Shown piece after piece: positions 11,678 through 53,650 of a DNA stretch of 64,000 bases. The translations under genes and the position numbers were made by a program. Position 1 is the first letter of the stretch. Every line of letters begins with the position of its first letter. The notes under the pieces are model-generated. The model did not search any database and was not told the origin of the DNA. It worked only from the letters and a program-made list of their open reading frames with translations. The stretch is from an uncultured Pseudomonadota bacterium (lineage in GTDB: Bacteria > Myxococcota_A > Polyangia > Fen-1088), in contig CAWKBC010000030.1 of assembly GCA_963847705.1 (NCBI GenBank), positions 64,001-128,000 on the forward strand, given 5' to 3'.

Positions 11678-11686
11678 GCGGCGGCG

Positions 11687-34302: not shown

Positions 34303-36003
34303 AGACCGGATCAATTTAGGTCGCTGAGGGAAAAGCCTAAGCGTTTGGATCCCTTAGAAGAAAGGGGATCGACGCGGATCGCGGATTGTGATCAAACGGT
34401 TCCAGGAGGGAATCGATGGACACGATCTGGACGACCGAGACGACGCTGACGGGCCTGGAGGAGCGGATCGTCAAGCGGTGTGGAAAGCGGCGTGTCTTCG
34501 TGTTTCTGCGGGAGCTGCGGCACCGCATCTTCGACGAGGCCTTGCAGGCGAAGCTGGCCGCGGCTTACGCAGAGCTGGTGCGCGGAAAGGAGCGAATTCC
34601 GCCCGCTCAAGTGGCGATGGCACTCCTACTTCAGGCGGCGTTGGGCGTGCCCGATCACGAGGTCGTGGAGCTGACGGTCATGGACCGACGCTGGCAGATG
34701 GTGCTCGGATGCCTGGGTGCCGAGGAGCCCCTGTTTTCTCAGGGAACGCTCTTCAATTTCCGGCAGCGAATGATCGCCAAGGGCCTCGACCAGGAGCTGT
34801 TCGACAAAACGGTGGCTCTGGCGCGCGAAACCGGCGGTTTCAGTGCGACGCATCTACGAGCGGCGTTCGATGCGAGCCCGCTGTGGGGCGCTGGGCGAGT
34901 GGAGGACACCTTCAATCTCATCGGTCGTGCTGCGATGCACGTCGTTCGCACGGCCGCCGAGCGACTGGGGCGACCATTCGCCGAGGTCGCCGCCGAAGCA
35001 GGAATCCCGGTGGTGGCCGCGACAAGCATCAAGACCGGGCTGGACATCGACTGGGACGACCCGGACGCCAGGAAAATGGGCCTGACGAAGCTCCTGGCGC
35101 AGGTGCAGTCGCTGGAACGCTGGCTTGATCGGGAGCTCAAGGAGCAGCTGAAACAGCCACCGTTGAAGGAGCAGTGGACACTCGTACAGAAGCTGATTGC
35201 TCAAGACACGGAGCCAGATCCGGAAGGTGGGGGAGGACGAAGAATCACCGACGGCGTCGCCAAGGACAGGCGCATCAGCGTCAGCGACGCGGACATGCGC
35301 CACGGCCGCAAGAGCAAGCGGAAGCGCATCGACGGCTACAAGCGGCACATCGCCCTCGACGTCGACACACCCGGCTTGATCTGCGGCGTAGCCGTCACAC
35401 CAGCTAACCAGCCAGAGCGAACCGCGAGCGCGACGCTCCTCGCCGACTTGGACCGGCAGAGATTGAAGCTCAGCGAGCTCTTCATCGACCGCGGATACCT
35501 CGGCGACGAATCAATCGAAGAGCGGCGACAGGAAGGGCTGCAGGTGCACTGCAAGCCTTTCCCGCAGCGAAACGGTGACCTCTTCGACAAGGGTGATTTT
35601 CAGATCGATCTCGTCGAGAAGACCATCCGCTGCCCGGAGGGCATCATCGTGCCGCTACGCCTTGGCACCAACGCCCATTTTCCGGCCGCCAAGTGCGACC
35701 CCTGCTCCAAGCGCGACGCCTGCACTCGCGCCAAACCCGGCAGAGGCCGCAGTCTCAGCATTCACCCAAACGAGCCCTTCATGCTCGATCTCAGGAGCAA
35801 GGCCAAGTCCCCCGAAGGCCGCGCCAACCTCAGAACTCGAGTGAAGGTCGAGCACGGCCTCGCAACCATCCACTCACGCCAGGGCGACAAGGCCCGCTAC
35901 CGTGGCCTTCGAAAAAACCTCTTCGACGTCCGCCGGCACGCCGCCGTCGAAAACCTCTTCGTGATCGATCGCTTACAGCTGGCCGCCTAATTTGGTCGGC
36001 TCT
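34303..36003 (+). mobile_element. IS1182-family insertion sequence, 1701 bp, CTAG target duplication
   Basis: Left end AGACCGGATCAATTTAGG versus right-end reverse complement AGAGCCGACCAAATTAGG (14/18). CTAG at 34299-34302 and 36004-36007. Confidence 0.88.
34416..35990 (+). CDS. IS1182-family DDE transposase
   Basis: DUF772-like N-terminus, 'FDASP', 'DADMRHGRKS...GYK', 'DRGY', zinc-ribbon cysteines, 'RVKVEH', 'RYRG'. Confidence 0.92.
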   Translation: MDTIWTTETTLTGLEERIVKRCGKRRVFVFLRELRHRIFDEALQAKLAAAYAELVRGKERIPPAQVAMALLLQAALGVPDHEVVELTVMDRRWQMVLGCLGAEEPLFSQGTLFNFRQRMIAKGLDQELFDKTVALARETGGFSATHLRAAFDASPLWGAGRVEDTFNLIGRAAMHVVRTAAERLGRPFAEVAAEAGIPVVAATSIKTGLDIDWDDPDARKMGLTKLLAQVQSLERWLDRELKEQLKQPPLKEQWTLVQKLIAQDTEPDPEGGGGRRITDGVAKDRRISVSDADMRHGRKSKRKRIDGYKRHIALDVDTPGLICGVAVTPANQPERTASATLLADLDRQRLKLSELFIDRGYLGDESIEERRQEGLQVHCKPFPQRNGDLFDKGDFQIDLVEKTIRCPEGIIVPLRLGTNAHFPAAKCDPCSKRDACTRAKPGRGRSLSIHPNEPFMLDLRSKAKSPEGRANLRTRVKVEHGLATIHSRQGDKARYRGLRKNLFDVRRHAAVENLFVIDRLQLAA

Positions 36004-37479: not shown

Positions 37480-38115
37480 TCACCTCGATCTGGTTCCGAT
37501 GCGAGCGGGACGCGCCGTCACCACCAGGCGCTTGTTGAGCTTCAGCAGGTTGGGCCGCCCCGCCCGATACGACATGTCCATGAACGACTGCATGATGTGC
37601 AGCCCCATGCCGGACTCGGGCAGCGCCTCGATGGCCGGGGGCTGCACCCGCGACGGATCGAACCCTGGTCCCCAGTCACGAAGCTCGATCTGGATGCGAC
37701 CGGGGCTCGTCTTGATTCGCAGATCGACCTCGGCGTCGCCGCTGCGGCGCGGGGCGCTCCCGACGTTCCCGTGCAGGACGATGTTGTTGAATCCCTCGCC
37801 GACGGCGGAGAGCACCTGATGGCGAAACTCGTCCCAGGCCGCGCCGCGCGGGCGCTCGGTCACCATTTTGCACGCCGTGGCCACCGCGCGAAGCGCAACG
37901 TCACGGTGCTCGAGGATGCCCCGAAGCTTCAGCCGCACCGTGCTCGGCGGAGAGACCGAGGCCCGCGTCCGAGAGGCGGCGGTCGTCGGGCTCCGTCGAA
38001 CCTTTCGGCGTTTGGGTGGGCTCAATGTGACTTTAGCTAACTCAAATCCAGAGTTCCGCGCCACCTCAAACTGGCGGCCGCCGCGGGACAGAAAGTAGTA
38101 AATCGATTTCCACAA
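37480..38115 (-). CDS. RsbW/SpoIIAB-like anti-sigma Ser kinase (HATPase_c_2); start uncertain
   Basis: N-box 'AVGEGFNNIVLHG', 'RDWGPGFD', 'ESGMGLHIM', 'NLLKLNK'. Confidence 0.85.
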   Translation of the reverse strand: MWKSIYYFLSRGGRQFEVARNSGFELAKVTLSPPKRRKVRRSPTTAASRTRASVSPPSTVRLKLRGILEHRDVALRAVATACKMVTERPRGAAWDEFRHQVLSAVGEGFNNIVLHGNVGSAPRRSGDAEVDLRIKTSPGRIQIELRDWGPGFDPSRVQPPAIEALPESGMGLHIMQSFMDMSYRAGRPNLLKLNKRLVVTARPARIGTRSR

Positions 38116-38297: not shown

Positions 38298-39689
38298 TTG
38301 CTTCGCCAACACGAAAACGTCGTCCACCGCATTCAGCGCCTGGCCGACATCCTGTGGGTCGTCGTCGCGCACATCGCGACCACCTTCGCCTATCGTCAGA
38401 CCTGGCGGAGCGAGTCGAGCAACGCGACGCTGGCGGCGGTGGTGGTCTTCATCGTCGCCGCGGAGCTGTGCAGCGTCTACCGCCCCTGGCGGGTCGAGCG
38501 GTTCCACGTCGAGCTGAGGATGGTCACCCTGGCCTGGCTGGGGACCGTGGCCACCCTGATGACCTTCGCGTTCGCCACGAAGACCTCCCTGGCGTACTCG
38601 CGGGTGGTGATCTTCGGTTGGTTCGTGCTGACGCCGGTGATTCTCTGTGGTTGGCGGATCGTGGTGCGGCTGGCGCTGCGGACGATGCGGCAGCAAGGGC
38701 GCAACATCCGCAACGTGGTGATCCTTGGCGCGACCGCCAACGCACGTGCGCTCTGCAAGGAGATCGCAGAGCGGCCCTGGTTCGGCCTGCGCGTCATGGG
38801 CGTCTACGACGACCGCAGCCCCGATCGGCGCGAAGACCTGAGTGACGTTTCCTGCGCCTTCGCCGGCAGCTCGAACGATCTGCTGGAGGTCTGCCGTTCC
38901 AACAAGGTCGACTCGGTCTACATCGCCTTGCCGATGCGGGCCGAGCCGCGCATCGCGCAGCTGCTCCAGGATCTCTCGAACACCACCGCGACGGTCTATC
39001 TGGTGGCCGACTTCTTCATGTTCAACCTGCTGAGCGCGCACTGGAGCACGATCGGCGAGATCGCGATCGTCAGCGCCCACGACACGCCCTTCAAGGGCGT
39101 GGACGGGGTCCTCAAGCGCTTCGAGGACATCGTGGTCGGCAGCATGATCCTCCTGGTCATCGCCATCCCGATGCTGCTCATCGCGATCGGCATCAAGCTG
39201 ACCTCGCCCGGGCCGGTCCTCTTTCGCCAGCGCCGCTACGGCCTGAACGGCAAGGAGATCCGTATCCTCAAGTTCAGGAGCATGACGGTCCTGGAGGACG
39301 GGCCCCAGGTCGTGCAGGCCAAACGCGGCGACGCCCGGATCACCAAGTTTGGTGCGTTCCTGCGCCGGACCTCCATGGATGAGCTCCCTCAGTTCCTGCA
39401 GGTGATCACCGGGAAGATCTCGATCGTCGGCCCGCGACCGCATGCGGTCGCGCACAACGAGACCTACCGCGCGCTGATCCGCGGCTACATGCTGCGCCAC
39501 AAGGTCAAGCCCGGCATCACCGGCTGGGCGCAGGTGAATGGATGGCGCGGCGAGACCCCGGACGTCTCCTGGATGGAGAAGAGAGTGAAGTACGATCTGC
39601 AATACATCCAGCGCTGGACGCTGCTGTGGGACTTGAAGATCATCTTGCTGACCATCTTCGGACGCAAGAAGAGCAACAACGCGTTCTAG
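38298..39689 (+). CDS. wcaJ: Undecaprenyl-phosphate glucose phosphotransferase (priming PHPT)
   Basis: 4 TM + CoA-binding-like region + 'KRFEDI', 'KFRSM', 'DELPQF', 'VGPRP', 'KPGITGWAQVNG'. Confidence 0.93.
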   Translation: MLRQHENVVHRIQRLADILWVVVAHIATTFAYRQTWRSESSNATLAAVVVFIVAAELCSVYRPWRVERFHVELRMVTLAWLGTVATLMTFAFATKTSLAYSRVVIFGWFVLTPVILCGWRIVVRLALRTMRQQGRNIRNVVILGATANARALCKEIAERPWFGLRVMGVYDDRSPDRREDLSDVSCAFAGSSNDLLEVCRSNKVDSVYIALPMRAEPRIAQLLQDLSNTTATVYLVADFFMFNLLSAHWSTIGEIAIVSAHDTPFKGVDGVLKRFEDIVVGSMILLVIAIPMLLIAIGIKLTSPGPVLFRQRRYGLNGKEIRILKFRSMTVLEDGPQVVQAKRGDARITKFGAFLRRTSMDELPQFLQVITGKISIVGPRPHAVAHNETYRALIRGYMLRHKVKPGITGWAQVNGWRGETPDVSWMEKRVKYDLQYIQRWTLLWDLKIILLTIFGRKKSNNAF

Positions 39690-39694: not shown

Positions 39695-41065
39695 TCACTC
39701 TTTCGGCAAGCCCGGCCGCGGAATCGGTCGGGTGGTCGCGGTGAGGGAGAGGTAGGCCCAGATCTGGCGCTGATCAAACCGAAAGTTGGGCGTGTCCAGC
39801 GTCGGTCCCCGATTTGCCCACAAGCCTCCCAGCTCGGCGTAGAAGTTCTCCGTCACCCGTCGGCGAACCCGCAGGGAGAAGGAAAAGGCGGTCTCGTCGG
39901 GAGGGGTTTGAGTGGGGAGGACCGACACGTCCTCGAGGACGGTGGCGAAGTCTCCCCGCAGGGTGACCGTCCAGCTTGGAACTGACACGGCGGTCAGCTC
40001 GGCGGCCACCGAGCCACGTGGCAGGGCATTTCCGACGACGGGGTCGAGGAAGTAATCGACCCCCGCGAAGGCCCGGCCCAGGAACACGATCTCGTCCCGT
40101 CGCGCGAGGTGCAAGATCAGCTCGGCGGATCCAATCGGCGACACGGATTGCGTCTTCCCCTCGGGAAGCAACGGCTGGGCCTCGGGCGGCGGAGAACCAA
40201 CCAGGTGGAGGTAGGTCAAGCCGAGCCGCAGGTTGAGATCGGCGCCCCTGTCGAGGCGCCTCTTCCAGGTGCCATTCGGAGTCACACTGAGGGCTCCGGC
40301 GTCATACGAGTACTCGGCGAATCCGACGGCCGTGCCCAACCCCAGCGCGTCACGCGCAGTCAGGAGAAACGAGGCCGCAGGTTCGCCGCTCACCCACGTC
40401 TGGCTGGTGACGGTCCCGGGGGGGACGACCCCGATGTCCAACCACTGCCAGTGCGAGACCAGCCCGGCGAAGCTCACCCCCCAGCGCTGGGTGAGCTTGT
40501 CCACGACCTTGGCCTGTCCGCTCACGGATGCCAAATCGACGACCTTTGGCAGCGTCGGCTGGTCGCTCCCCAACACTTGAGGCAGGGCCGTGTAATCAGG
40601 TTCGCCGATCGAGCCGACGGCAGCGGCCGTCACCGTGACGCTTCGCGATGTCCGGGCGTCGAGGGTGAGCGCGAACGTGTGCAAGATGAGCGGTTCGGAC
40701 ACCGAGGACGGATTGGTTGGCTGGCCGGCCTGAGCAGGAGCTTGCTCCAACTCCGAGGAGGGATTGGGATACTCCCAAAAGATCCGAGGCGAGTACCAGG
40801 CCGAGAAGATGATCCCGGGATTGCGAAGCTCGAGAGCCAGGCGCGGGATCAGGATCTCCGCCACGAACGAGCGGGGGTCGCTTCCGGGCACGAGCGGAGC
40901 TTCTCCAGCTCGCGACTCGCTGGAGACACTTGCTTGCAGAGCGAGGATTCCAGGGACGAAACCGAGCCCCGCCGGCGAGTCCTGGGCACCGGCCTCGCCG
41001 GCGAGGCTGGCCTGGGCGCCCAGATCTCCCGACAGGAGGCAGAACGCAACCAGCGCCGCGCCCAC
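39695..41065 (-). CDS. Putative outer-membrane beta-barrel for polysaccharide export (EpsX/ExoB-like)
   Basis: Signal peptide, long run of amphipathic beta-strands, located directly after a short OPX gene. Confidence 0.65.
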   Translation of the reverse strand: MGAALVAFCLLSGDLGAQASLAGEAGAQDSPAGLGFVPGILALQASVSSESRAGEAPLVPGSDPRSFVAEILIPRLALELRNPGIIFSAWYSPRIFWEYPNPSSELEQAPAQAGQPTNPSSVSEPLILHTFALTLDARTSRSVTVTAAAVGSIGEPDYTALPQVLGSDQPTLPKVVDLASVSGQAKVVDKLTQRWGVSFAGLVSHWQWLDIGVVPPGTVTSQTWVSGEPAASFLLTARDALGLGTAVGFAEYSYDAGALSVTPNGTWKRRLDRGADLNLRLGLTYLHLVGSPPPEAQPLLPEGKTQSVSPIGSAELILHLARRDEIVFLGRAFAGVDYFLDPVVGNALPRGSVAAELTAVSVPSWTVTLRGDFATVLEDVSVLPTQTPPDETAFSFSLRVRRRVTENFYAELGGLWANRGPTLDTPNFRFDQRQIWAYLSLTATTRPIPRPGLPKE

Positions 41066-41074
41066 GGATGGTGC

Positions 41075-41683
41075 CTATTCTACGACCACGACGTCTCCGT
41101 CCTGCAGACGGAAACCTATCGCGTGCGGCTCGGCGGCCGTCAGATCGGCGGCGCGGAAACGGATCCGTTGGACCGTCGTTCCCTCGGTCCGGATCACGAA
41201 GATCCGGTCCTTGTTGGCGAACTCGCTCAACCAACCCGCCGTCGCCAGCGCCGCCATCACCCCGCGGCTTCGCGTCAGCTCGTACGCGCCGGGGACCTTG
41301 ACCTCACCGACGACGTGCACCCGAACCGCTGCGATCTTGAGGATGGCAACCGTCACCTCCGGTTTCACCAGCACGCCGGTGAGGCTGGTTTCGAGCTCGG
41401 CAACCACCGTCCCGGTGGTCTTGCCACCGACGCTGACGGCCCCCACGGTCGGCTGGGGATAGTCGCCGCGATCGCCCACCAGGAACTCGCCCGAGAGCGC
41501 TGGCTGATTCTTCACGGTGACCAGAATCGTGTCGCGGGGCTCGATCGTCGAGCTGTCGGTCGGAGCGACCGGCAGATCTTGGACCCAGCGGAACGCGTGC
41601 TCCGTGACGCACCCGAGCGCCGCGGAGCCCAACGTCAAGGTGACGACCAACGCGATCCTGACGGCGGATCTCTCGCCCATCAA
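41075..41683 (-). CDS. wza: Short OPX polysaccharide export lipoprotein (Poly_export + one SLBB, no OM helix)
   Basis: Lipobox 'ALGC', 'IEPRDTILV...PTVGAVSVGGKT', 'VVGEVKVPGAY'; ends 'LQDGDVVVVE'. Confidence 0.9.
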   Translation of the reverse strand: MMGERSAVRIALVVTLTLGSAALGCVTEHAFRWVQDLPVAPTDSSTIEPRDTILVTVKNQPALSGEFLVGDRGDYPQPTVGAVSVGGKTTGTVVAELETSLTGVLVKPEVTVAILKIAAVRVHVVGEVKVPGAYELTRSRGVMAALATAGWLSEFANKDRIFVIRTEGTTVQRIRFRAADLTAAEPHAIGFRLQDGDVVVVE

Positions 41684-43611
41684 AACTTTCGACCGACCGG
41701 GCGCTTGCGACGGGTCCGGGCCCCGGGGACGAAAATGGCCTCAGCAGCCAAGGTCTTGGCGATGATCCGCTCGGCCTCCCGGCCTGCAATTCCCAGGGCA
41801 GCGGCCAGGATTCCCAGAAAGAGGCCCAGTCCCCCTCGCATGGCGAGGGTGCTCCTGTTGCGCGAGCGCTCCAAACGGATGGGCGAGACATCGAAGCGGG
41901 ACTCTGCAGAGACCTTCTCGAGGTTCAGCTGAATCTCGGCCTGCTTGAGCTTCGCAAACAGATCGGTGTGAAACTGCATCGTCGCTTCTTGCCGGTGGTC
42001 CAGGTCTGACAGGTGTTGCTCGACCCGCGGCAGGTCGCGCACCACCCGCTGAACCTGGCCCAGGTTCTTCTCGACGTCAGAAAGGTTGGCGCGCGTCGCG
42101 GCGACCTGGGTCCGCAGCTTCTCTGCGTTCGAGCGCGCCAGCTGATAGTTGGGGTCGGACTCGCGACTCAAGGGGGAGGTCGGTGATTGAAGCTCGTCCT
42201 TGATCAGCGTCTCCAGGCGTTGCTTTTGGTCCTTGAGAGCCAGGACTTCCGGATGACCTTCCCCGAGCCCGCGGCCGTAGGCCTCGGTCAGCTTGCGATT
42301 CACCTCGGTCAGCGACTGCCGGTAAGACTCCGAATACTGAAACTTCCGCTGGGCTTCGGGTCTATTGGTCTTCAGCTGATCCTCCGCCGCCGCCAGCTCG
42401 CCCTCGAGTTGGTGAAGCTGAGACGACAGCTCGGTCCGGCGGGTCTCCAGATCGAATCGGCTGGAGTGCGTCTGCTGAGAGTCTTCCGGGAGCCGATCCG
42501 CGTTCTCTTCTCGATAGCTCGCCCTCTCGTTGCTGACCCGGTCGACGTCGCCTTCCACCGTCTTCAACTGGTCGCGAAGGAAGTCCGCCTTGGCGCTGAG
42601 CTCCCGGACCGACCGCGCGATCTCTGCCTGCACGTAGTCCCTGATGTGGAGCGCCAGGAACTCCTGGGGCGAAGGCTGCGCCGAGGCCCTGTCTTTGTAC
42701 GTGACCCGGAACGTGTGATCGCCGATCTCATCCACCTTGAAGCGGCTGGCCATCGAGGTGACGTGGGCATCCGTCAGATCCTGGACGTTGAGCTTCTTGA
42801 GGGTGGTTCGAAGCAGATCGGCCTGGGTCATGGCGCGCTCTGCACCCTTCGCAAACAGGGTCGAGTCGCGCTCACTGTTCTGCCACGGGTCCTCGTTCGG
42901 GCTGGCGGAGAGCGTCATGTGCGGCATCAGCTTGACCTCGGACACCGCAGCGACGCCCGGAGGAACCACGAAGAGCGACATGATTCCCAGCAGGGCGCCG
43001 GCGAGAGCGAAAGCGCCTATGAAGAGGCTGCGTTCGCGGACGAAATGGTAGGCGGCGACCGCCTTGCGCAGCATGTCGGCCAGCGACGGACCGTCCGCAT
43101 CATCCTCTCCCCGCTCGCGAGGGCGAACGGGCTCGCCCGCCAGAGGGGGGACGATGGTCGGGACCAGCATCGCGCCCTTCATGGGGGCTCGCATGATCCG
43201 ATCGGGGAGCCGAACGGTCGCGCTGGTCGGTCGATCGAGGAGAAACATGAACTCGACGTTCCCGACCGTCACCTGGTCACCGTTGCGCAGCTGCGATCGA
43301 GAGGTGCGCTTTCCAGCGACGAAGGTCCCGTTCGTGGAGTCCAGGTCGACGATCTCGAAGCCCTGGCTGTTCTGCATGATCCGGGCGTGGTGCGAAGAGA
43401 CGGAAGCATCGGCGATGCTCACCTCCGCCTCGTCCGCCCTTCCCAGCAGCACGGAGCTGGTCTTGATCGCGTAGATCCGTTGCGGGTGCTCGCCCACGAA
43501 GAGCACCACGTACGCCAGCGCCTTCTCGGAGCGGACCGCCTGTCCCAACTCGGAATCGAGACCACCGCCCATCCCCGGCTCGCTGCTATCTGACGCCCTC
43601 TCCCCGGCCAT
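41680..43611 (-). CDS. FHA-domain / polysaccharide co-polymerase (Wzc/GumC-like) fusion lacking a tyrosine-kinase domain
   Basis: FHA 'LLGR...VSSHHA...DLDSTNGT...LRNGD'; TM1; coiled-coil with 'GEGHPEVLAL'; TM2; ~30-aa tail with no Walker A and no Tyr cluster. Confidence 0.85.
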   Translation of the reverse strand: MAGERASDSSEPGMGGGLDSELGQAVRSEKALAYVVLFVGEHPQRIYAIKTSSVLLGRADEAEVSIADASVSSHHARIMQNSQGFEIVDLDSTNGTFVAGKRTSRSQLRNGDQVTVGNVEFMFLLDRPTSATVRLPDRIMRAPMKGAMLVPTIVPPLAGEPVRPRERGEDDADGPSLADMLRKAVAAYHFVRERSLFIGAFALAGALLGIMSLFVVPPGVAAVSEVKLMPHMTLSASPNEDPWQNSERDSTLFAKGAERAMTQADLLRTTLKKLNVQDLTDAHVTSMASRFKVDEIGDHTFRVTYKDRASAQPSPQEFLALHIRDYVQAEIARSVRELSAKADFLRDQLKTVEGDVDRVSNERASYREENADRLPEDSQQTHSSRFDLETRRTELSSQLHQLEGELAAAEDQLKTNRPEAQRKFQYSESYRQSLTEVNRKLTEAYGRGLGEGHPEVLALKDQKQRLETLIKDELQSPTSPLSRESDPNYQLARSNAEKLRTQVAATRANLSDVEKNLGQVQRVVRDLPRVEQHLSDLDHRQEATMQFHTDLFAKLKQAEIQLNLEKVSAESRFDVSPIRLERSRNRSTLAMRGGLGLFLGILAAALGIAGREAERIIAKTLAAEAIFVPGARTRRKRPVGRKF

Positions 43612-43709
43612 TGTTTGGACAACCGCGTTCCAGTGAAGGACGAGTTTTAGCACATCCGCCGGCCGATCTCAAAGGCACCACGCCGCGTCAGGCGGGCGTG
43701 CAGGGCGGG

Positions 43710-45275
43710 TCAGCCGCCCGGCGTCGACGATACGGCATGCCGGTGAGATGCCTTCACCGCGTGCCGAGCGATCCCGACGGTGAGCAGCGCCGCAAGAACT
43801 CCCAGCGCCACCGACAGCGAGATGATGAGCGTTCGGCGCCTGTCGAATCGGCTCGTCGGCTCCGAGCTGATGCTGCGCCCGGGGATGACCATCGTCTGGG
43901 CGAAATTCTTTCCGCTGGGCGTCGGCTGGGGCTCCGGCACCGACAGAGGCATCGCGACCGTGGGTGGCAACCCCGTGGCGGCCTGCTGCGCCAGGTCCAC
44001 ACGGCGTCGAACGACCTCGTCTGTCCCCGAGAGCTCGCGGCGGACAAACGCCCCCACCGCCGTCGATGGCGCGATCAGGTCGTTGTTGAATCCGACCTTG
44101 AGGAGGGCCTGGGCCATCTCTTCGGCGCTGGCGTAGCGACCTTCTCGGGGACGACTGAGCGCCCGCAGACAGATCTCGTCGAAACAGGCCGGGGCCCCGT
44201 GGACGCTGGGAGGCGTGATCTCCTTGCGCAAGACGTTCGCGATGATCTGTTCGTAGCTGTCGGCCGAAAACAGCGCCTGGCCGGTGAGCGCCGTCCACAT
44301 CACCACACCGACGGCGAAGATGTCGGTGCGGGCGTCCAGCGGTTCCACGTACAGCTGCTCGGGGGCCATGAAGGCGGGTTTGCCGAGGTTCGTGGGATCG
44401 GCCTGCCCGGTCTCCCCGAGCGCGGTGAAGCGGGCGCTGCCGAAATCCGTCAGTCGGGCCACCCCGTCCGTCCCGACCAGGATGTTGGGCGGGGAGACGT
44501 CGCCGTGGACGAGCCCGAGCCACTTCCCCTCCTCGTCCGAGAGCTCGTGGGCGCTCTGGAGGCCGCGCAGCAGATCGAGGAGCACGCTCACCAGGATGTC
44601 CGGCGGGACGGGGCGGCCGAATGAGAGCTCCTCCAGGTTGGTCCCCTCGACGAACTGCAGCACGAGGTAGGGCTGGTTCTTGTAGGTGCCCACGTCGACC
44701 ACCGATTGGGTGTTGGGGTGATCGAGCCAGCTTCCCACCTGAACTTCCCGGATGAAGGATCTCTCGGCCGCCTGCTCCTGCCCCGAGTCCTGACGGACGA
44801 CCTTGATGGCAAACAGGCGCCGAAAGCCCACCGCGCCGGTGCGGCGCCCCGCGTACACCGACCCCATTCCCCCCTGGCCGAGCCGCGCCGAGACCTCATA
44901 GGGTCCGAGCTGGAAGAGAGCCTCTGCGCCCTTGCCACGGATGGTGACTTCCTTTGCCTCGACCGGAACCAACACCCGACGGCTGCAGAGCCTCCGCAGG
45001 GATCGGATCGTCGCCTCTTCCGAGAGGCCAGAGAGTCCCGCCAGGCGGGCGACCGATAATCGGCCATCGACCAGGCCCAGCAGGAGGCGCTCCTCGGCCC
45101 GGAGGCTCGGCAAGACGACGGATCCACCCGCCACGGCGAGCCCGGACGACAACTCACGCTCGCCGTCCGCGGTCGGCCGGTCCGCCCTGGCAATGACCCG
45201 CTGAGAGACCGTGAGGACCGTGGTGCGCCGGAGAACCGGACCACCTGGGTCGTCTTCTCTCACTGGTTGCGGCAC
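43710..45275 (-). CDS. Membrane-anchored Hanks-type Ser/Thr protein kinase
   Basis: 'LGQGGMGSVY', 'AIK', 'FIRE', 'HGDVSPPNILV', 'DFG', 'FMAPE', 'DIFAVG'; C-terminal TM. Confidence 0.93.
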   Translation of the reverse strand: MPQPVREDDPGGPVLRRTTVLTVSQRVIARADRPTADGERELSSGLAVAGGSVVLPSLRAEERLLLGLVDGRLSVARLAGLSGLSEEATIRSLRRLCSRRVLVPVEAKEVTIRGKGAEALFQLGPYEVSARLGQGGMGSVYAGRRTGAVGFRRLFAIKVVRQDSGQEQAAERSFIREVQVGSWLDHPNTQSVVDVGTYKNQPYLVLQFVEGTNLEELSFGRPVPPDILVSVLLDLLRGLQSAHELSDEEGKWLGLVHGDVSPPNILVGTDGVARLTDFGSARFTALGETGQADPTNLGKPAFMAPEQLYVEPLDARTDIFAVGVVMWTALTGQALFSADSYEQIIANVLRKEITPPSVHGAPACFDEICLRALSRPREGRYASAEEMAQALLKVGFNNDLIAPSTAVGAFVRRELSGTDEVVRRRVDLAQQAATGLPPTVAMPLSVPEPQPTPSGKNFAQTMVIPGRSISSEPTSRFDRRRTLIISLSVALGVLAALLTVGIARHAVKASHRHAVSSTPGG

Positions 45276-45417
45276 TCCGTAGCCCCCCCTCTTCGCCGGA
45301 GCGATCGAATGTCTTGCTCAGCGGCTTCTATCATATGTTATGAAATCCTGCGACAGCGAGACAAACCCAGACCGTTACGTTTCATCCCCGAGAGCTCGAC
45401 TTTTCGAAAGTGGCGCA

Positions 45418-46437
45418 ATGATTGACGTGGCAACGATCGTCGTGAACTACCGCACCCCAGCGGCGACGATCGACGCGGTCGCGGCGCTCGGCAAGGACCT
45501 CGACCGGCTGGAGAATCCGCTGGTGGTCGTGGTCGACAACGACTCCGGCGACGGTTCTGCAGAGCTGCTCGAAAAGGCGTTTTCCGAAACGAAATGGGCT
45601 GGTCGCGTGGTTGTCGTTCCCTCCGGGCACAATGGTGGATTTGGAAGCGGCGTCAACGTAGGCGTTCAACATGTTCTGAAATCGTTCGGCGCAGCTCGCT
45701 ATTTTTACATTCTAAATCCAGATGCAACGATCGATCCGGGTGCCCTCAACGCGCTTGTTTCATTCATGGCCGATCACCCCGACGCCGGGCTGGTGGGAAA
45801 CCTGGTGCGCAACACGGAGGGCGCGGGCGAGATCAGAGCCTTCCGGTTCCCTTCGATCTGGGGCGACCTGGAGGCAAGCGCAAACCTCGGTCTGCTCTCC
45901 CGGCTGCTTCACAACCACCGGGTGTCCATCAACCCCAGCGCCTCCTGCGAGGTGGATTGGGTGTCCGGTGTCAGCATGTTGTTCCGAGGCGAAGTGTTTT
46001 CGACCGTGGGCTTCTTCGATGAAGCCTACTTTCTCTACTTCGAGGAGATCGACTTCGCCAAACGAACGCGACAGGCGGGCTGGAAGACGTATTTCGTCGC
46101 CGACGTCGGGGTCGACCACATCGGAGCGCTCTCCACCGGCCTGAAGGACGAGTCCCGGCCCATGCCCCGGTATTGGTTCGAGTCGCGTCGTCGATACTTC
46201 GTGAAACATCACGGGCGTTTCTACGCCGCCGCCTGTGATGCAGCCTGGCTCTTCGGGCACGCGATCCTCAGGCTCAAGGGGAGCTTGCCGCGCCACCGCG
46301 AGACCTTCCGGCCAAACATTGGTCGTGACTTTCTCCGCTTCAGTCTGGCCAATGTCTTCAAGCCGGCGCCTGAAGCAGAGCAGTCAAAGGGGAGGGGCCC
46401 GTCTCATCGCGCGGCCCCCGACCAGGTCTCCGGCTAA
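45418..46437 (+). CDS. GT2 glycosyltransferase (WbbL/rhamnosyltransferase-like)
   Basis: 'IVVNY', 'VDNDS', 'NGGFGSG', 'LNPD', 'DWVSG', 'FLYFEEID'. Confidence 0.9.
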   Translation: MIDVATIVVNYRTPAATIDAVAALGKDLDRLENPLVVVVDNDSGDGSAELLEKAFSETKWAGRVVVVPSGHNGGFGSGVNVGVQHVLKSFGAARYFYILNPDATIDPGALNALVSFMADHPDAGLVGNLVRNTEGAGEIRAFRFPSIWGDLEASANLGLLSRLLHNHRVSINPSASCEVDWVSGVSMLFRGEVFSTVGFFDEAYFLYFEEIDFAKRTRQAGWKTYFVADVGVDHIGALSTGLKDESRPMPRYWFESRRRYFVKHHGRFYAAACDAAWLFGHAILRLKGSLPRHRETFRPNIGRDFLRFSLANVFKPAPEAEQSKGRGPSHRAAPDQVSG

Positions 46438-46453
46438 CCGGGCTGTTTCGAGG

Positions 46454-47476
46454 TCACCGGTCGGTCACCGTTCCGGTGGTGGCGGGTCCCTTGTATTCGA
46501 TCAGATTCGATTGGCGGCCGCCGACCCGGCGAATCCAGTAGAGCGCCTGTCCGAGCATCTGGGGGACCTTCCCGATCGTGCAGAAGAGAGCGTAAAGGGC
46601 CGAATCCCGAGGGGAGAGACCGCGCAACCGCGAGGAGCGATAGATGCGAGCGGCGAGAACCCCGTAGGCGGCGAGGAGACCAAGCCCGAGCCCGCCGGTC
46701 GGTACCGCCAGCCCCAGCGCGAGGCCGGGAAGGACCAGCCCCCAGAGCCAGTTGCTTCGGACCTCCCGCACCCAGTGGTGCTCGGGTTCATGCCCGTGAC
46801 GGGCGGCGCCTTCCGCGTAGGCGTGACCGGCCCGGACCCCGCGCTTCCACCATTGCCGGAATTGCGTCATCGCCACGTCGTGAAGCGTCATCCCGGCGTC
46901 GATCCGCCAGATCTTCCAACCGAGACGCCGCAACCGGAGGCAGAGATCCGGCTCCTCGCCCGCGATGAGCGAGGGATCGAAGCCGCCGACGGCGCGCAAC
47001 GCGTCGACCCGCATGAGCGCGTCGCCGCCGCACGCGCTCACCAACCCGAACGGGGAGACGTTCCACTCGAGATCGCACAGGCGGTTGTAGATCGATCGGT
47101 CGGGGTAGCGCTCTTGCCGCCGGCCGCAGACGACGCCGAAGTGGGCATCGGCTGCAAACTCGCGCTCGGCCCGCTCCAGCCACCCGGCGGCCACCTCGCA
47201 GTCACCATCCACGAACTGGACGAGCTCCAGCGTGGGAACGGCTTCCAGGAGGCTCGCCAGCCCGGCGTTTCGGGCGCGCGCCGCCGTGAAGGGCACCGCG
47301 CGATCGAGCTCGACCACCCCCACCCCCATCGCCCGGGCCAGCTCCACGCTGCCGTCGGTCGAGCCGGAGTCGACGTAGATGACCGCCGCCACCCGACCGA
47401 CCAGCGAGGAGAGGCAGGTCCGCAGCCGTTCGCCCTCGTTTCGCCCGATCGCGACGGCCCCGACCTGGGGAGTCAC
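46454..47476 (-). CDS. GT2 glycosyltransferase
   Basis: 'IGRNEGERL', 'VDSGSTD', 'ARARNAG', 'VDGD', 'GEEPDLC'; GTGA overlap with the upstream stop. Confidence 0.9.
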   Translation of the reverse strand: MTPQVGAVAIGRNEGERLRTCLSSLVGRVAAVIYVDSGSTDGSVELARAMGVGVVELDRAVPFTAARARNAGLASLLEAVPTLELVQFVDGDCEVAAGWLERAEREFAADAHFGVVCGRRQERYPDRSIYNRLCDLEWNVSPFGLVSACGGDALMRVDALRAVGGFDPSLIAGEEPDLCLRLRRLGWKIWRIDAGMTLHDVAMTQFRQWWKRGVRAGHAYAEGAARHGHEPEHHWVREVRSNWLWGLVLPGLALGLAVPTGGLGLGLLAAYGVLAARIYRSSRLRGLSPRDSALYALFCTIGKVPQMLGQALYWIRRVGGRQSNLIEYKGPATTGTVTDR

Positions 47477-48018
47477 GACGCCTTGTCCGCGGTCGTTCCG
47501 CCCCGCACCACCCGCGCCGGGACGCCCAGGGCCACCGCACCGGCCGGGATGTCGTCGCAAACCACGGCGTTCGCGCCGATCGTCGCCCCATCGCCGATGT
47601 GAACCGACCCCAGCACCTTGGCGCCCGCGCCGACCGACACCCGGCTCCCCAGGCGGGGGGCCTCGAGAGGTCGGTCGGAACGGCGGTTCCCCAGCGTGAC
47701 GTCTTGTCGGATGATGCAGTCGTCGCCGATCTCGGCGTGGCCGTGGATGACGATTCCGCTCTGGTGCTCGATGATGACCCGCCGACCGACGCGCGCCGTG
47801 TACGGCAGCTCGATCCCGTAGAGATTGCGAACGCTTCGGAAGAGCACGCGATAAAGTACACTGAGGGGCGCCCGGAGAACCTTGGGGCCGATCCCCATCC
47901 GCCAAGTGCCGAACCGATGGACAGCCAATGCCTGGAAACCGGGACGTGTGACGTCACGATCGTGCGCTTCCCAGTCCTCGACGATCTGGGTGATCAGGCT
48001 GAGTCCCATGAAATTCAC
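47473..48018 (-). CDS. Serine-O-acetyltransferase-like hexapeptide acetyltransferase (WcaB-like)
   Basis: Hexapeptide repeats 'IGDDCIIRQDVTLG', 'VGAGAKVLG', 'IGANAVV', 'GVPAR'. Confidence 0.88.
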   Translation of the reverse strand: MNFMGLSLITQIVEDWEAHDRDVTRPGFQALAVHRFGTWRMGIGPKVLRAPLSVLYRVLFRSVRNLYGIELPYTARVGRRVIIEHQSGIVIHGHAEIGDDCIIRQDVTLGNRRSDRPLEAPRLGSRVSVGAGAKVLGSVHIGDGATIGANAVVCDDIPAGAVALGVPARVVRGGTTADKAS

Positions 48019-48071
48019 ACCTCGTTTCTCCGTTCATAACATGGCTGGACCCGAAGCCTGATGGGCACATT

Positions 48072-49268
48072 TTGCTAGAGGCGTTCCTCTCCGCGCTGGG
48101 CGTGGCGCTGCTGTTGCCGGCTGTCGTGCTGCTCATGGAGACGGCGGCGGCCTTCCTGCCGGCGCGCCGCCGGATCCAGCACGATGCCACCGTCACTCCG
48201 CGCGTCGTCGTCCTCGTGCCTGCGCACAACGAAGCGGCGCAGATCGCGGAGACGGTGGGCGCGCTGGTCCAGGACCTGCCGGCTCAGGGGACCGTCCTCG
48301 TCGTCGCCGACAACTGCGCGGACGAGACCGCGGCCCTGGCGAGAGGCGCCGGGGCGACGGTCATCGAGCGCCAGGATCTGTCGCGCGTGGGCAAGGGATT
48401 CGCGATCTCGAAGGGGCTCGAGCATCTTGCCGAGTTGCCTCCCGACGTGGTGGTCATCTTCGACGCCGACTGCCGGATCTCGGAGGGCGGCGTCGCCACT
48501 CTCGCCCGGGCGGCGGCGCGATTCCGGCGACCGGTTCAGGCCGAGTATCTGCTGGGCGCTCCGGGGATCCAGGACCCGATGGTGGTGGTGAGCGCCATGG
48601 CCGTCCTGCTCCGCAACCGAATTCGGCCGCGCGGTTTGGACCGACTGGGGTTGCCCTGCACCCTCACGGGGAGCGGCATGGCCTTCACCTGGGACGTTTT
48701 GCGCGCGGCACCGGAGACGGGCGCCAACCTGGTCGAGGATCTGGTCATGGGGATCGACCTCGCGCTGCGGGGGCACCCGGCCAAGCTGTGCTCGGAGGTC
48801 AAGGTGAACAGCGTCCTGCCGTCGAGCGGCGCCGCCAGTGTGCGGCAACGGCGTCGCTGGGAGCACGGGCATCTTCACACCCTGATGACCTACGCGCCCC
48901 GGCTGCTGGTCGCCGGGATTGTGCGCCGGCGACTGTCACTCATCGCGCTGGGCCTGGACCTGATCATCCCGCCGCTCGCCCTTCTGGTCCTGCTTCAGAC
49001 GGTCCTGCTGGGGGTGACGCTCCTCTCTTACGCGCTGAAGGCGACCTCGCTGATCCCGGTGACCCTCGTCGCGGCGGGCCTCGGTCAGGTCGTTCTGGCG
49101 GTGGCGGCCGCCTGGATCGGGTTCGGCAGACAGACGATTCGTTTTCGCCAGCTCGCCTTGATGCCGCTCTATCTGGCCCGGAAAGCTCCTTTCTATCTGG
49201 CCTTGATCCTCCGGGGCCGGCAACGGAAATGGGAGCGCACCACCCGCAAGGGTGAGCCGCCGGGCTAA
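48072..49268 (+). CDS. GT2 membrane glycosyltransferase (QxxRW type)
   Basis: 'VPAHNE', 'ADNCAD', 'GKG', 'DAD', 'VED', 'QRRRW'; C-terminal TMs. Confidence 0.9.
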   Translation: MLEAFLSALGVALLLPAVVLLMETAAAFLPARRRIQHDATVTPRVVVLVPAHNEAAQIAETVGALVQDLPAQGTVLVVADNCADETAALARGAGATVIERQDLSRVGKGFAISKGLEHLAELPPDVVVIFDADCRISEGGVATLARAAARFRRPVQAEYLLGAPGIQDPMVVVSAMAVLLRNRIRPRGLDRLGLPCTLTGSGMAFTWDVLRAAPETGANLVEDLVMGIDLALRGHPAKLCSEVKVNSVLPSSGAASVRQRRRWEHGHLHTLMTYAPRLLVAGIVRRRLSLIALGLDLIIPPLALLVLLQTVLLGVTLLSYALKATSLIPVTLVAAGLGQVVLAVAAAWIGFGRQTIRFRQLALMPLYLARKAPFYLALILRGRQRKWERTTRKGEPPG

Positions 49269-49367
49269 GGACGAGACTGGTACCGCTCGTCGCGCTCCCT
49301 CAGGTCCGCCGGACTCCTTTTGATAAGGGCGCTCCCTTCGGATATTCTCGCCACGGTTCAGGCGGAG

Positions 49368-50120
49368 ATGATCGAACGCATTCAGATCGGCCAGGTTCCG
49401 ATCGACAAGGTGGATCTGCCGGGGACGTTGGCGGCCATCGGCGCGATGATCGATTCCCGCACGGGGGGAATGATCTTCACGCCGAACGTCGACCACATCG
49501 TGCTGGCGGAGGACGACGAGCGCTTTCGGCGGGCCTACCAGCGGGTCAGCCTTTCGCTGGTCGATGGAACACCGGTGCTCTGGGCGGCGCGTCTCCTCGG
49601 CCAACCGCTGCCAGAAAAGGTCTCGGGTTCCGATCTCGTCATTCCTCTCATGGAGCGAGCGGCCGCCAAGGGCTGGCGCGTGTTTCTCCTCGGTGGTGAG
49701 CCTCGTTCCGGGGAGGTCGCGACGATGCGGCTCAAGGAACGATTTCCGGAGCTGAAGCTCGTGGGCACGGCCGGGCCCCGGATCGATCTCCAAAGCGAAG
49801 TTGGTGAGAGGCTGGCGGTCGCCAGGCAGGTCGCCGCGACGGCGCCGGACCTGGTGCTGGTGGCGTTCGGCGCTCCCAAGCAGGAGATTTTCTGCGACGA
49901 AGCGCTCGATGTCCTCAAGCCTGCCGTCCTGGTCTGCGTCGGCGCGGGGATCGACTTCATCTCCGGCGTGGCGCGCCGGGCTCCGGCCTGGATGTCGCGT
50001 TGCGGAATCGAATGGCTGTACCGATTGGCCCACGAGCCGCGCCGGCTCGCCGGCCGCTACCTCCTGCGCGATCCGAAATTCATCCCAATCCTGCTGCGTC
50101 AGATGCGCGAGCGTCGGTAA
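49368..50120 (+). CDS. WecB/TagA/CpsF family glycosyltransferase (GT26)
   Basis: 'TPNVDH', 'DG', 'VSGSDL', 'GAPKQE', 'RAPAW', 'EPRRLAGRY'. Confidence 0.92.
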   Translation: MIERIQIGQVPIDKVDLPGTLAAIGAMIDSRTGGMIFTPNVDHIVLAEDDERFRRAYQRVSLSLVDGTPVLWAARLLGQPLPEKVSGSDLVIPLMERAAAKGWRVFLLGGEPRSGEVATMRLKERFPELKLVGTAGPRIDLQSEVGERLAVARQVAATAPDLVLVAFGAPKQEIFCDEALDVLKPAVLVCVGAGIDFISGVARRAPAWMSRCGIEWLYRLAHEPRRLAGRYLLRDPKFIPILLRQMRERR

Positions 50121-50193
50121 CGTGGGCGATGTCCGGGAAGCATCGTCATCGAGATTCGCTCGGGCATCGGATATCATCGGCTAGAAACAGGTC

Positions 50194-51393: not shown

Positions 51394-51473
51394 CGCCAGC
51401 CCCACCACGAGTTGCTGGACGCAGGCATCCGATGCAACATGCGGGCTCGATGACCGTGCTCCGATGAGGCGAG

Positions 51474-52784: not shown

Positions 52785-52840
52785 CGCCGGACGGGTCCAG
52801 GACGCCGGACGGGGTCAGACCAGGCGGGTCGAGCGTTGTG

Positions 52841-53650
52841 TCAGCGAGAGCGAATCATCGCCTTGACGTCGCCGATCGTCTTCTGGACCCGCCGCCAGAG
52901 CCGCTCGGCGGGCATATAGACGAGCCCCCGGAGCCGCTCATTCGGGCGCGCCTTGAAGATCGTCGAGTGGCTGGCGGTCATACCGGGTGGCGGCTCGCGG
53001 GTGTAATAATACGCTGCGAACGACTGGCGAACGTGGGGCGCCGAAGCAGAGACGGGGGCCACGCCGTGGTAGCTGACGTCGCTCGTCTCGAAAATGAGAC
53101 AACGATTCAGCTTCGGAGAGCTTCGAAAGTGGCAGGTCTTGACCTCTTTGTCCCAAAGCTCGATGTGACCGCCCCAGTCCTCCTGCCAGACGGGGTTGAG
53201 ATAGAGGAGGATGTTGAGCCGGCGGAAGAGCTTTCGGTCGTTGAGTTTGTTGAAGTCGACGTGAACATCGAGGCGGCCGCCAGGGCCCGTGAGGTGCATC
53301 CCGCCCCCCGAATACGCCTCGTCCGAGAGCAGGTTTGGAATCCCGGTAATGAACTCGAGATCCGCCAAGAACTCCGGCGACATGATCGCCTTCCCGAGCA
53401 TCGCGACGCGTTCCGGGAACTTGGACTGATCGGTCACCTGAATTTTCTTCTGTTCGTTGACGAAGTTGAACTGGAAGCCCTGCTGACCCGCCTGCTCCAA
53501 CGTCGGGTAGGCCGCCGCAATCTCCTCTGCGATTCCGGGCACGAGAAAGTCTTCGATCGCCATGTACGGAAAGGGCTGCGCGTTTCGAAACTGCTCTCGT
53601 AGACGCTCGCGATCCAGTGGCCGGATAAGGTCGTACGCTCTCGACGTCAT
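52841..53650 (-). CDS. 2OG-Fe(II) oxygenase
   Basis: 'PFPY...DF', 'GGGMH', HxD 'VHVDFN', 'RRLNILLYLN', 'SYHG', 'RQSFAAYYY'. Confidence 0.88.
   Translation of the reverse strand: MTSRAYDLIRPLDRERLREQFRNAQPFPYMAIEDFLVPGIAEEIAAAYPTLEQAGQQGFQFNFVNEQKKIQVTDQSKFPERVAMLGKAIMSPEFLADLEFITGIPNLLSDEAYSGGGMHLTGPGGRLDVHVDFNKLNDRKLFRRLNILLYLNPVWQEDWGGHIELWDKEVKTCHFRSSPKLNRCLIFETSDVSYHGVAPVSASAPHVRQSFAAYYYTREPPPGMTASHSTIFKARPNERLRGLVYMPAERLWRRVQKTIGDVKAMIRSR

Follow-up and report, generated by a model that had tools for sequence, protein, structure and literature searches.

Wzc, a polysaccharide co-polymerase (PCP), undergoes a cycle of assembly and disassembly driven by trans-phosphorylation of its tyrosine tail. 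In the EPS pathway of Myxococcus xanthus, the PCP EpsV has no BY-kinase (BYK) domain and is accompanied by the pseudokinase EcpK and by EpsY and EpsX (PMC12004946, PMC9601211). The ecpK gene lies far from epsV and EcpK escapes Walker-motif searches, and the same work left open how PCPs without an active BY-kinase function and whether phosphorylation cycling is needed (PMC12004946). Here we analysed a locus in which such a PCP carried its own FHA domain and was encoded beside a Hanks-type kinase. We consider it probable that this BYK-free Wzx/Wzy co-polymerase is switched by the dedicated membrane Ser/Thr-type kinase through the FHA domain of the PCP.

The window, that is the whole 64-kb stretch of DNA under analysis, contained the four co-oriented genes reported in a first-pass annotation, all confirmed as minus-strand open reading frames (Table 1). 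The 9-bp gap between the OPX and barrel genes was correct, and the PCP and OPX genes did overlap, but through a TGATG junction (1 nt) rather than the ATGA originally given. The assignment to a Wzx/Wzy locus stood with respect to the flippase, the initiating transferase and the OPX, while Wzy was only weakly matched; homologues of the Wzy candidate recurred in related loci, and the WcaJ-type transferase was found in most of them. The OPX (201 aa, lipobox Cys24) matched the EpsY model NF041843 over its full length (E 4e-34, below cut-off) and had the short form with two periplasmic domains that is characteristic of D1D2-OPX/beta-barrel translocons. The adjacent gene had no Pfam or NCBIfam match and no EpsX HMM match at E 0.1. 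Its AF2 model (pLDDT 84, pTM 0.80) formed the 18-stranded barrel expected next to such an OPX, in line with the initial beta-barrel-like description, and its best PDB match in Foldseek was the polysaccharide outer-membrane barrel 4y25, with AlgE (3rbh) also among the matches listed.

Table 1. Features of the export locus (positions within the window)
Feature	Position	Strand	Evidence or remark
WcaJ-type initiating phosphoglycosyl transferase	38298-39689	+	TIGR03023 over cut-off
Predicted 18-stranded outer-membrane beta-barrel; putative EpsX/AlgE-like role	39695-41065	-	AF2, Foldseek
Short D1D2-type OPX lipoprotein, EpsY-like	41075-41680	-	Poly_export + SLBB
FHA-fused polysaccharide co-polymerase (PCP)	41680-43653	-	Pfam/TIGRFAM matches, AF2 model, alignment
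Short basic cytoplasmic tail after TM2 of PCP	41683-41781	-	kinase domain, Tyr cluster and EpsV-type docking strand all absent
Thr146 motif (T-x-x-hydrophobic) in linker directly following FHA; candidate phospho-acceptor	43207-43218	-	
FHA domain with G71, R72, S86, H89, N108	43237-43515	-	invariant in 26 homologues, 42-85% identity
N-terminal L-D-x-x-L segment; candidate kinase-docking/pseudo-ligand element	43546-43560	-	
Membrane Hanks-type kinase	43710-45275	-	Pfam; locus-specific clade member
Juxtamembrane Thr461 motif (T-x-x-hydrophobic); candidate docking site for FHA, predicted to be autophosphorylated	43881-43901	-	
Glycosyltransferases (GT2, GT4, WecG), acetyltransferase, 2OG-Fe oxygenase of same locus	45340-54915		Pfam-type matches
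Wzx flippase	55003-56373	-	Polysacc_synt_3, E 2e-51
Probable Wzy polymerase, weak assignment	56607-58031	-	Wzy_C E 0.003, below cut-off

The PCP likely starts at ATG 43611 (643 aa), where its homologues begin. By hydropathy, two TM helices (TM1 ~209-229, TM2 ~602-624) enclosed a large, mostly helical periplasmic domain, and the gene shared its Wzx/Wzy locus with an OPX and an initiating transferase, as is typical of a PCP. The profile search suggested earlier for the fusion recovered the FHA domain (residues 69-131, E 1.5e-16) and the TIGR03007 chain-length determinant (294-587, E 1e-18, far below the model's cut-off) but no Pfam Wzz or GNVR match at E 0.01. In Foldseek, the AF2 model (pLDDT 73.5) matched the Wzc structures 9r68, 9r64 and 7nhr with E 6e-9 to 1e-6 and TM scores of 0.19-0.25. 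A misassembled FHA-PCP junction, raised as a concern at first, was refuted by 208 homologous clusters, with the FHA in 113 of the 120 listed. Orthology to EpsV was rejected, as there was no match to the EpsV model at E 0.01. The chain ended 33 aa after TM2 (~30 aa in the first reading) without Walker A and with no Tyr in its last 60 residues. Tails were short across the homologues (~17 aa in Nannocystaceae-type PCPs), so the fused C-terminal BY-kinase, Walker motifs and Tyr tail of a PCP-2a were lacking.

FHA domains that bind phosphothreonine share five conserved residues, G, R, S, H and N (PMC4238996). All five were present ahead of TM1, as the intact FHA first described would require, and the fold was close to GarA/OdhI (Z 19.5, rmsd 1.0 over 94 residues), in a structural alignment that listed FHA domains only and thus bears on the FHA and not on the PCP body. 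By residues and fold, the domain fits the phosphothreonine-binding class, and such binding is predicted. Among database homologues, R, S and N were present in 221 of 230, gapped in 9 and altered in none.

The neighbouring gene was confirmed to encode a TM-anchored Hanks kinase, with a Pkinase domain at 126-351 (E 3e-32) and one C-terminal TM (~482-504). From the N-terminus, it comprised an HTH-like region, a non-RD kinase domain, a juxtamembrane linker, the TM and a 17-aa periplasmic stub. Since this stub is so short, the input to the kinase is likely cytoplasmic, via the N-terminal HTH-like/DUF4388 region. K158, E177, H257-G-D259, N264 and D277 were invariant in alignment A4, and invariance of the catalytic Lys, Glu, Asp, Asn and DFG-Asp in 19 domains predicted an active enzyme. 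The catalytic loop DLKPEN is a signature of Ser/Thr kinases (PMC2887360). Because the window kinase has DVSPPN instead, its threonine specificity is only presumed. The family loop was H-[G/C/A/S]-D-V-S-P-x-N, with an invariant Lys in a GKP motif instead, and Ser at that position was also found in 19 of the 76 other kinases of the genome. Among the TM-bearing locus kinases, 23 of 24 had the juxtamembrane Thr motif; among the genome's other TM kinases 11 of 43 had it, and so did two of four sister RD kinases.

The FHA-PCP fusion was found in 49 of 301 genomes of the class, distributed over four families. When 251 genomes of the phylum outside the class were scanned, with four candidates scored in each, no additional full-length fusion turned up and there was one FHA-only match; a locus search seeded with a single protein returned one locus. 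All source names seen were metagenome-assembled genomes and no cultured organism was among the homologues listed, so there is no cultured host yet in hand. Of 53 fetched regions, 24 had the kinase no further than 3.2 kb from the PCP, with several arrangements of the genes. The co-occurrence proposed from the window alone was borne out: at a score of at least 400 bits, the kinase was detected in 33 of the 301 genomes, all among the 49 fusion carriers, and the best score in the other 252 was 373 bits. This threshold, like all motif patterns, was chosen after the data were seen, and 19 of the 33 detected kinases had been in the training alignment of the profile. In a hold-out set of 44 more family genomes, 9 of the 19 fusion carriers had the kinase, and one additional carrier had a divergent kinase beside an OPX gene; of the 25 genomes without the fusion, 1 had the kinase. 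Moreover, the window kinase and 24 locus kinases were separated from the genome's 76 other kinases by one branch (SH-aLRT 100). After addition of sister kinases, 33 cognate kinases and one paralogue still formed a clade (SH-aLRT 92), non-RD inside and with four RD sisters. These comparisons supported the view that the kinase is a dedicated partner of the fusion PCP. With about 0.10 kinase expected per 8 kb in the window's kinase-rich genome, and more in Nannocystaceae-type genomes, coincidental adjacency was rejected mainly on the strength of the single kinase clade.

The FHA residues followed the presence of the kinase. Each of the 42 PCP rows whose genome carries the kinase had intact R, S and N, whereas 26 of the 28 rows from genomes lacking it showed them altered or lost; the two exceptions were G174, where 150 of 795 candidates were scored, and G514, which was 70% complete. 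On the PCP tree, these patterns amounted to only 4 FHA changes and 6 kinase changes, and independent pairs gave three changes in the same direction, none opposite and two without difference (sign test p 0.25). Of the 44 PCPs whose FHA was intact, 43 had the L-D-x-x-L segment, a pattern defined after inspecting the data; none of the 25 with an altered FHA had it. The linker Thr motif was found in 194 of 221 homologues, within a linker that was disordered in the AF2 model; the 28-aa window that follows had such a motif in 55 of 214. Seven of 42 kinase-positive rows lacked the linker motif, and 14 of 26 kinase-negative rows had it. The FHA of the largest clade without the kinase retained R, S and H with a fixed N-to-E change, and an N-terminal Thr motif was gained in 17 of 17 copies. 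This FHA looks rewired rather than decayed, which shows that the domain can serve without the locus kinase.

A predicted kinase-FHA complex scored 0.56 (best control 0.00), with runs agreeing in at least 69% of contacts and partner pLDDT of at least 76. The pass mark was reached by 116 of 157 solved pairs and 2 of 215 mismatched pairs, and passes at or below 0.60 comprised only 18 solved pairs and both mismatches. Because the like complex PknB-GarA (6i2p) has been solved, the pass may stem from memorisation by the predictor, and the model weakly backs the pairing. With 77 kinases and 32 FHA matches in the genome, other pairings are conceivable as well.

Based on these features, we propose the following order of events. 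The non-RD kinase, needing no activation-loop phosphorylation, would autophosphorylate T461 in its juxtamembrane region, and the FHA of the PCP would dock on this phosphothreonine in the plane of the inner membrane. The kinase could then phosphorylate T146 just after the FHA, and FHA-pThr contacts, within a protomer or between neighbours, would set the assembly state of the PCP ring. That state might in turn govern how the PCP couples with Wzy and with the OPX/barrel translocon.

It seems to us very unlikely that this PCP is still served by a BY-kinase or BY-pseudokinase from another locus, in the way that EpsV is served by EcpK, with the FHA/kinase pair as an added layer or a co-inherited passenger. 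As first noted, there was no match to a BY-kinase or to the LMW-PTP/Wzb family within 64 kb; a PP2C match was likewise lacking there, and no phosphatase was linked to the locus. The stand-alone and usually adjacent BY-kinase of a PCP-2b (CapAB/CpsCD/ExoCD) was not found in the window's genome, which is 84.7% complete and to that extent leaves room for a distant partner, as does the remote position of ecpK. The sole BYK over cut-off in the genome (C23) was rejected as such a partner, since it continued the N-half of a separate Wzc across an apparent frameshift after TM2, at another locus and with its own Tyr tail. A BYK match was present somewhere in 53 of 67 fusion-bearing genomes and absent from the other 14, seven of them kinase-positive; two kinase-less genomes had a stand-alone BY-pseudokinase in another polysaccharide locus. 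No BYK was seen at fusion loci in 53 + 20 fetched regions, many of which ended at contig ends, and a ~260-aa gene upstream of some PCPs, suspected to be a hidden BYK, was a phosphopantetheinyl transferase. In the EpsV/EcpK and HfsA/HfsB subfamily, the PCP is bound at its C-terminal tail by a stand-alone BY-pseudokinase. A five-sequence EcpK-like profile found nothing in the genome (best E 0.13) or at fusion loci; its label was assigned from locus and features with M. xanthus EcpK not included, so divergent pseudokinases could escape it. The PCP tail also lacked the helix-strand docking motif of EpsV-like proteins.

Alternatively, the whole cassette might be gained and lost as a block while the FHA reads another of the cell's many kinases. 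The genus of the window showed the predicted pattern, with both genes in the same 9 of 25 genomes, the correlation between kinase and PCP identities (r 0.91) would also follow from shared descent, and the N-to-E clade gained its GarA/DgcB-like tail without a locus kinase. However, the kinase stayed near the PCP through inversions and reshuffling, no altered FHA occurred in kinase-bearing genomes, and the FHA remained intact in four genomes whose kinase sits in another cluster, so cassette linkage alone is insufficient and we give this account little credence. It is somewhat less improbable, but still unlikely, that the FHA is a tether drawing the phosphorylated kinase, or some other phosphoprotein, to the export apparatus, so that other enzymes such as WcaJ would be regulated or the apparatus localised, with the PCP ring unswitched. 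WcaJ was the gene most often beside kinase and PCP, the juxtamembrane Thr motif (23/24) was better conserved than the linker Thr (35/42), and capsule synthesis in S. aureus is reported to be under the control of the Ser/Thr kinase PknB (PMC6441080). On the other hand, T146 was invariant in the 26 homologues of the window's subgroup (alignment A1), and the PCP's own L-D-x-x-L segment co-varied with the kinase.

The switch on the PCP itself thus remained our preferred explanation, in a form that departs from the original claim that kinase and FHA replace the BY-kinase. At least four lineages kept PCP, OPX and barrel without the locus kinase or a canonical FHA. The PCP core therefore seems workable without the kinase. 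Judging from these sequences, the kinase probably serves as a switch regulating a PCP that is independent of BYKs, and not as an obligatory replacement. Our literature search found no description of an FHA-PCP/dedicated kinase system, and the pair likely represents an undescribed on/off control of polysaccharide secretion in a myxobacterial group. If so, Ser/Thr signalling encoded in the locus itself would reach a co-polymerase directly, with K158, T461, R72/S86/N108 and T146 as key residues. The PCP family offers a natural series on one scaffold, from members with an FHA and dedicated Hanks kinase to those whose FHA is rewired, those that have lost it, and those fused to the OPX. A bolder reading, possible but on balance doubtful, is a fourth class of co-polymerase control, in which FHA domains would form a ring in the cytoplasm, with each one holding the phospho-Thr linker of the adjacent protomer, and so drive an assembly/disassembly cycle like that of Wzc; Hanks kinases would have convergently replaced BY-kinases, and descendants without the kinase would either have redirected the FHA to a GarA-like tail or have locked the machine through a fusion of PCP and OPX.

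Among known systems, the M. xanthus EPS pathway shared with this locus a PCP without a BYK domain, a short D1D2 OPX with an 18-stranded barrel, and a myxobacterial Wzx/Wzy setting. In contrast, the window PCP had neither an EpsV match nor an EpsV-type docking tail, no EcpK-like gene was found, and the locus had an N-terminal FHA on the PCP together with a cognate Hanks kinase whose catalytic residues are intact. As in E. coli Wzc/Wzb/Wza (PCP-2a) and S. aureus CapAB (PCP-2b), two TMs flank a periplasmic alpha/beta base with long coiled coils, but the window PCP lacks a fused or adjacent BY-kinase, a Tyr tail and a Tyr phosphatase, and its cytoplasmic module precedes TM1 instead of following TM2. 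Rv1747 is a self-reading FHA protein that regulates an ABC transporter. GarA/OdhI and Bdellovibrio DgcB are self-reading too (PMC6733907); they had the closest FHA folds and likewise carry a same-chain candidate Thr with a hydrophobic residue at +3. This Thr follows the FHA in the window PCP and precedes it in the kinase-less N-to-E clade. Unlike GarA/OdhI, DgcB and Rv1747, whose targets are a dehydrogenase, a diguanylate cyclase and an ABC transporter, the protein described here is a co-polymerase. T6SS PpkA/Fha is reported to combine, similarly, a membrane kinase with an FHA reader (PMC3953482) to control a trans-envelope machine, there for protein secretion and with a separate Fha protein. 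Finally, Hanks kinases influence Wzx/Wzy polymer output in S. aureus (PknB, PMC6441080) and in S. suis (Stk1-CcpS-CpsB, PMC10148854). Those are global kinases atop an intact BYK system, whereas the window kinase, with no BYK linked, is dedicated to its locus and has its reader fused to the PCP.

All four genes of the export module claimed in the first-pass annotation were found, on the minus strand, at the positions it gave, and its sole error was the overlap between the co-polymerase (PCP) and OPX genes, which is TGATG and not ATGA. The FHA-PCP fusion had the described order of FHA, TM1, periplasmic body, TM2 and a short tail (33 aa, basic) with neither Walker A nor Tyr. Its periplasmic body matched TIGR03007 below the cut-off (E 1e-18). 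When the AF2 model (pLDDT 73.5) was compared with known structures, the FHA part matched GarA, OdhI and DgcB, and the body matched Wzc with low global TM-scores (0.19-0.25). The OPX best matched the EpsY model, and the last gene had the predicted fold of an 18-stranded barrel, with a polysaccharide outer-membrane barrel as top PDB match. Judged from these models, the two are the composite translocon described in PMC9601211. The module was flanked by WcaJ, Wzx, a weakly assigned Wzy and many glycosyltransferases.

Features of the window and of fetched genomic regions (L numbers)
Feature	Sequence	Position	Strand	Remarks
Hanks kinase	window	43710-45275	-	HTH-like N-terminal region, Pkinase domain, linker, one TM, 17-aa periplasmic stub
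FHA-PCP fusion	window	41680-43653	-	likely start 43611
DDE transposase	window	34416-35990		lodged between rmlA and rmlC; matching locus of close relative L017 lacks the insertion
RsbW-like anti-sigma/HATPase gene	window	37480-38115		between wcaJ and rmlD; also in L049 and L129
2OG-Fe(II) oxygenase	window	52841-53650		amid glycosyltransferases; possible polymer-modifying enzyme
N-to-E PCP	L059	8840-11407		with 16 relatives, kinase-less clade; N-to-E fixed in FHA, new N-terminal Thr motif
Classical Wzc	L015 (G000:C23, window's genome)	9916-13139		frameshifted directly past TM2
Stand-alone BY-pseudokinase	L173	5070-6164		adjoins wcaJ, different locus; no Walker A Lys or Tyr tail; long N-terminus with Thr motif
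Stand-alone BY-pseudokinase	L174	5849-6949		as L173
EcpK-like small gene	L143	1644-2138		immediately past epsX in an eps locus of another family
EcpK-like small gene	L147	1533-2078		as L143
Single-frame PCP-OPX fusions	L059, L060, L062, L065, L066, L068, L069, L090, L093, L131-L133, L135			

A genome search for proteins joining FHA and PCP, as the first-pass annotation had proposed, showed that the fusion was recurrent. Namely, a profile search found it in 49 of 301 genomes of the class, in four families, which is a floor because the first profile look was strict. It was present in 44 of the 89 genomes of the window's family, and a sample of 251 phylum genomes gave no full-length fusion outside the class. 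The window's fusion had 208 homologous clusters (8000 candidates scored) and a Nannocystaceae-type query had 111; the sources were Polyangia, Nannocystaceae or Myxococcota MAGs and one MAG labelled Bacteroidota. Some of the loci carried additional genes: a phosphopantetheinyl transferase gene directly upstream of the PCP (L052, L054, L059, L062, L065, L066, L090), an NRPS-like gene upstream of it (L058, L089), or a recurrent stand-alone PilZ gene close to the export genes (L070, L072, L076, L078, L096), which suggests c-di-GMP input.

The expected co-occurrence with a nearby Hanks kinase was borne out in 24 of 53 fetched regions, many of them ending at contig ends, where the kinase lay within 3.2 kb of the fusion (upstream, downstream or beyond wcaJ); a BY-kinase was found in none of the 53. 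In a quick tree, these 24 kinases and the window's own were separated from 76 other kinases of the genome (SH-aLRT 100), and 33 cognate kinases plus one paralogue still grouped after the nearest outside kinases were added (SH-aLRT 92). All 25 locus kinases were non-RD, compared with 8 of the 76 others, and the four sister kinases were all RD. The catalytic residues were invariant in the 19 domains compared. Non-RD catalytic loops are tied to the mode of kinase activation. Since the loop lacks the DLKPEN Lys (PMC2887360), the Thr specificity of the kinase is putative. With a threshold of at least 400 bits, chosen afterwards, the kinase profile identified 33 of the 301 genomes, all within the 49 fusion-bearing ones, and the best score in the remaining 252 was 373; 19 of the 33 kinases had been in the profile's alignment, and 8 to 35 candidates were scored per genome. 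In another 44 genomes of the family, 9 of the 19 that carry the fusion had a kinase scoring at least 390 bits, as did 1 of the 25 that lack it. The latter kinase adjoins wzx on a contig of 20 kb, and a tenth fusion genome had a divergent clade member (318 bits) adjoining an OPX gene. Thus, as far as sequences can tell, the locus kinase is a dedicated partner of the FHA-PCP. The Nannocystaceae-type clade members of L074-L087 were 900-1300 aa long and carried a DUF4388 at the N-terminus; their periplasmic tail was long and rich in Pro and Lys, in contrast to the 17-aa stub of the window's kinase.

FHA ligands carry a Thr with a hydrophobic residue at +3 (PMC6733907). Of 24 locus kinases, 23 had a candidate Thr motif no more than 60 residues ahead of the TM, as did 11 of 43 other kinases with a TM and 2 of 4 sister kinases. 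The 28 residues that follow the FHA contained such a motif in 194 of 221 homologues, and the next 28 residues in 55 of 214. These patterns, like the N-terminal segment below, were set after inspection and count related, not independent, sequences. The linker motif occurred in 35 of 42 kinase-positive and 14 of 26 kinase-negative PCPs and is therefore less specific. An L-D-x-x-L segment N-terminal to the FHA was found in 43 of the 44 proteins whose FHA is intact and in none of the 25 with an altered one; a Thr motif took its place in all 17 N-to-E proteins. The predicted kinase-FHA complex scored 0.56 (best control 0.00), with contact agreement of at least 69% and partner pLDDT of at least 76. 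Of 157 solved pairs, 116 reached this mark, as did 2 of 215 mismatched ones; within the range up to 0.60, however, lay just 18 of these solved pairs together with both mismatched ones. Because the PknB-GarA complex is solved, the pass may stem from memorisation by the predictor; the prediction thus gives weak support to the pairing.

The reading we favour, and hold to be probable, has four steps that we infer: the kinase would autophosphorylate its own juxtamembrane Thr, the FHA would dock, the PCP linker would be phosphorylated, and FHA-pThr contacts would set the PCP assembly state. The phosphothreonine-binding residues R72, S86 and N108 were kept in all 42 PCP rows from kinase-bearing genomes and altered, or the FHA lost, in 26 of 28 rows from kinase-lacking ones (tree of 70 rows, leaving out G523 with a short core and N-to-E, G220 with a split gene and N-to-E, and G118, whose contig ends within the FHA). 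Different lineages had different changes: R-to-S together with S-to-E/D; R-to-S, S-to-A and N-to-S/P; S-to-A; N-to-E; or whole loss. The two exceptions were G514 (70% complete, 3.5-kb contig) and one G174 copy (150 of 795 kinase candidates scored). The tree required only 4 changes of the FHA and 6 of the kinase, and its independent pairs gave three in the same direction, none opposite and two without difference (p 0.25), so that the tracking is consistent but not statistically secured. We consider it improbable that kinase and FHA occur together through co-inheritance as a cassette; the kinase of four genomes now lies in a different cluster, and their FHA is still intact. Somewhat less improbable, though still unlikely, is that the FHA serves to tether, so that other enzymes are regulated or the machine is localised. 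The new N-terminal Thr motif of the N-to-E clade resembles the self-binding tail of GarA and DgcB, and this clade was possibly rewired to another kinase.

A hidden BY-kinase or pseudokinase could also serve the PCP, and BY-kinase matches were indeed found in 53 of 67 fusion-bearing genomes, mostly in frames of at least 660 aa; 7 of the 14 genomes without a match were kinase-positive. Ten short-frame cases were inspected: five had N-terminal Wzc sequence within that frame or the following one, one was cut by a contig end, one was ambiguous, one looked ParA-like, and two were stand-alone pseudokinases at another locus of kinase-less genomes. Short or split Wzc frames recurred in several relatives and are possibly long-read indels. 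The only BY-kinase above cut-off in the window's genome belonged to a Wzc at a different locus, of which it forms the C-half; a frameshift parts the two halves, and the BY-kinase ends in a Tyr cluster of its own. An EcpK-like profile (five sequences, the label inferred from an epsZ/Y/X/V locus) had no match in this genome or in the fusion loci. EpsV binds EcpK through a helix-strand motif in its tail (PMC12004946), whereas the FHA-PCP tail lacks such a motif. Thus, no BY-kinase partner is evident from the sequence of this genome (84.7% complete), and we give the hidden partner about as little weight as the cassette.

The proposal that the Hanks kinase replaces the BY-kinase was partly supported, as regards the lack of a BY-kinase partner in the sequences searched, but the word 'replaces' was not. 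Kinase-less lineages retained wcaJ, PCP, OPX and barrel, and therefore neither kinase seems to be needed for the PCP core to work; this speaks for a role as a switch and against one as an obligatory motor. Thirteen PCPs, all from kinase-less genomes, were fused in frame to OPX, and the third hydrophobic segment that joins the two parts retained the lipobox Cys. Such fusions may be polyproteins that are later processed, or a trans-periplasmic machine locked covalently.

No description of the FHA-PCP or its cognate kinase was found in the literature searched, which covered few subscription papers; such loci might be listed in the gene-cluster tables that accompany PMC12004946, PMC9601211 and PMC12819527. 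The FHA-PCP with its kinase is a real, conserved and apparently so far undescribed variant of Wzx/Wzy co-polymerase control. Among known FHA proteins, Rv1747 is one with which the FHA-PCP can be compared.
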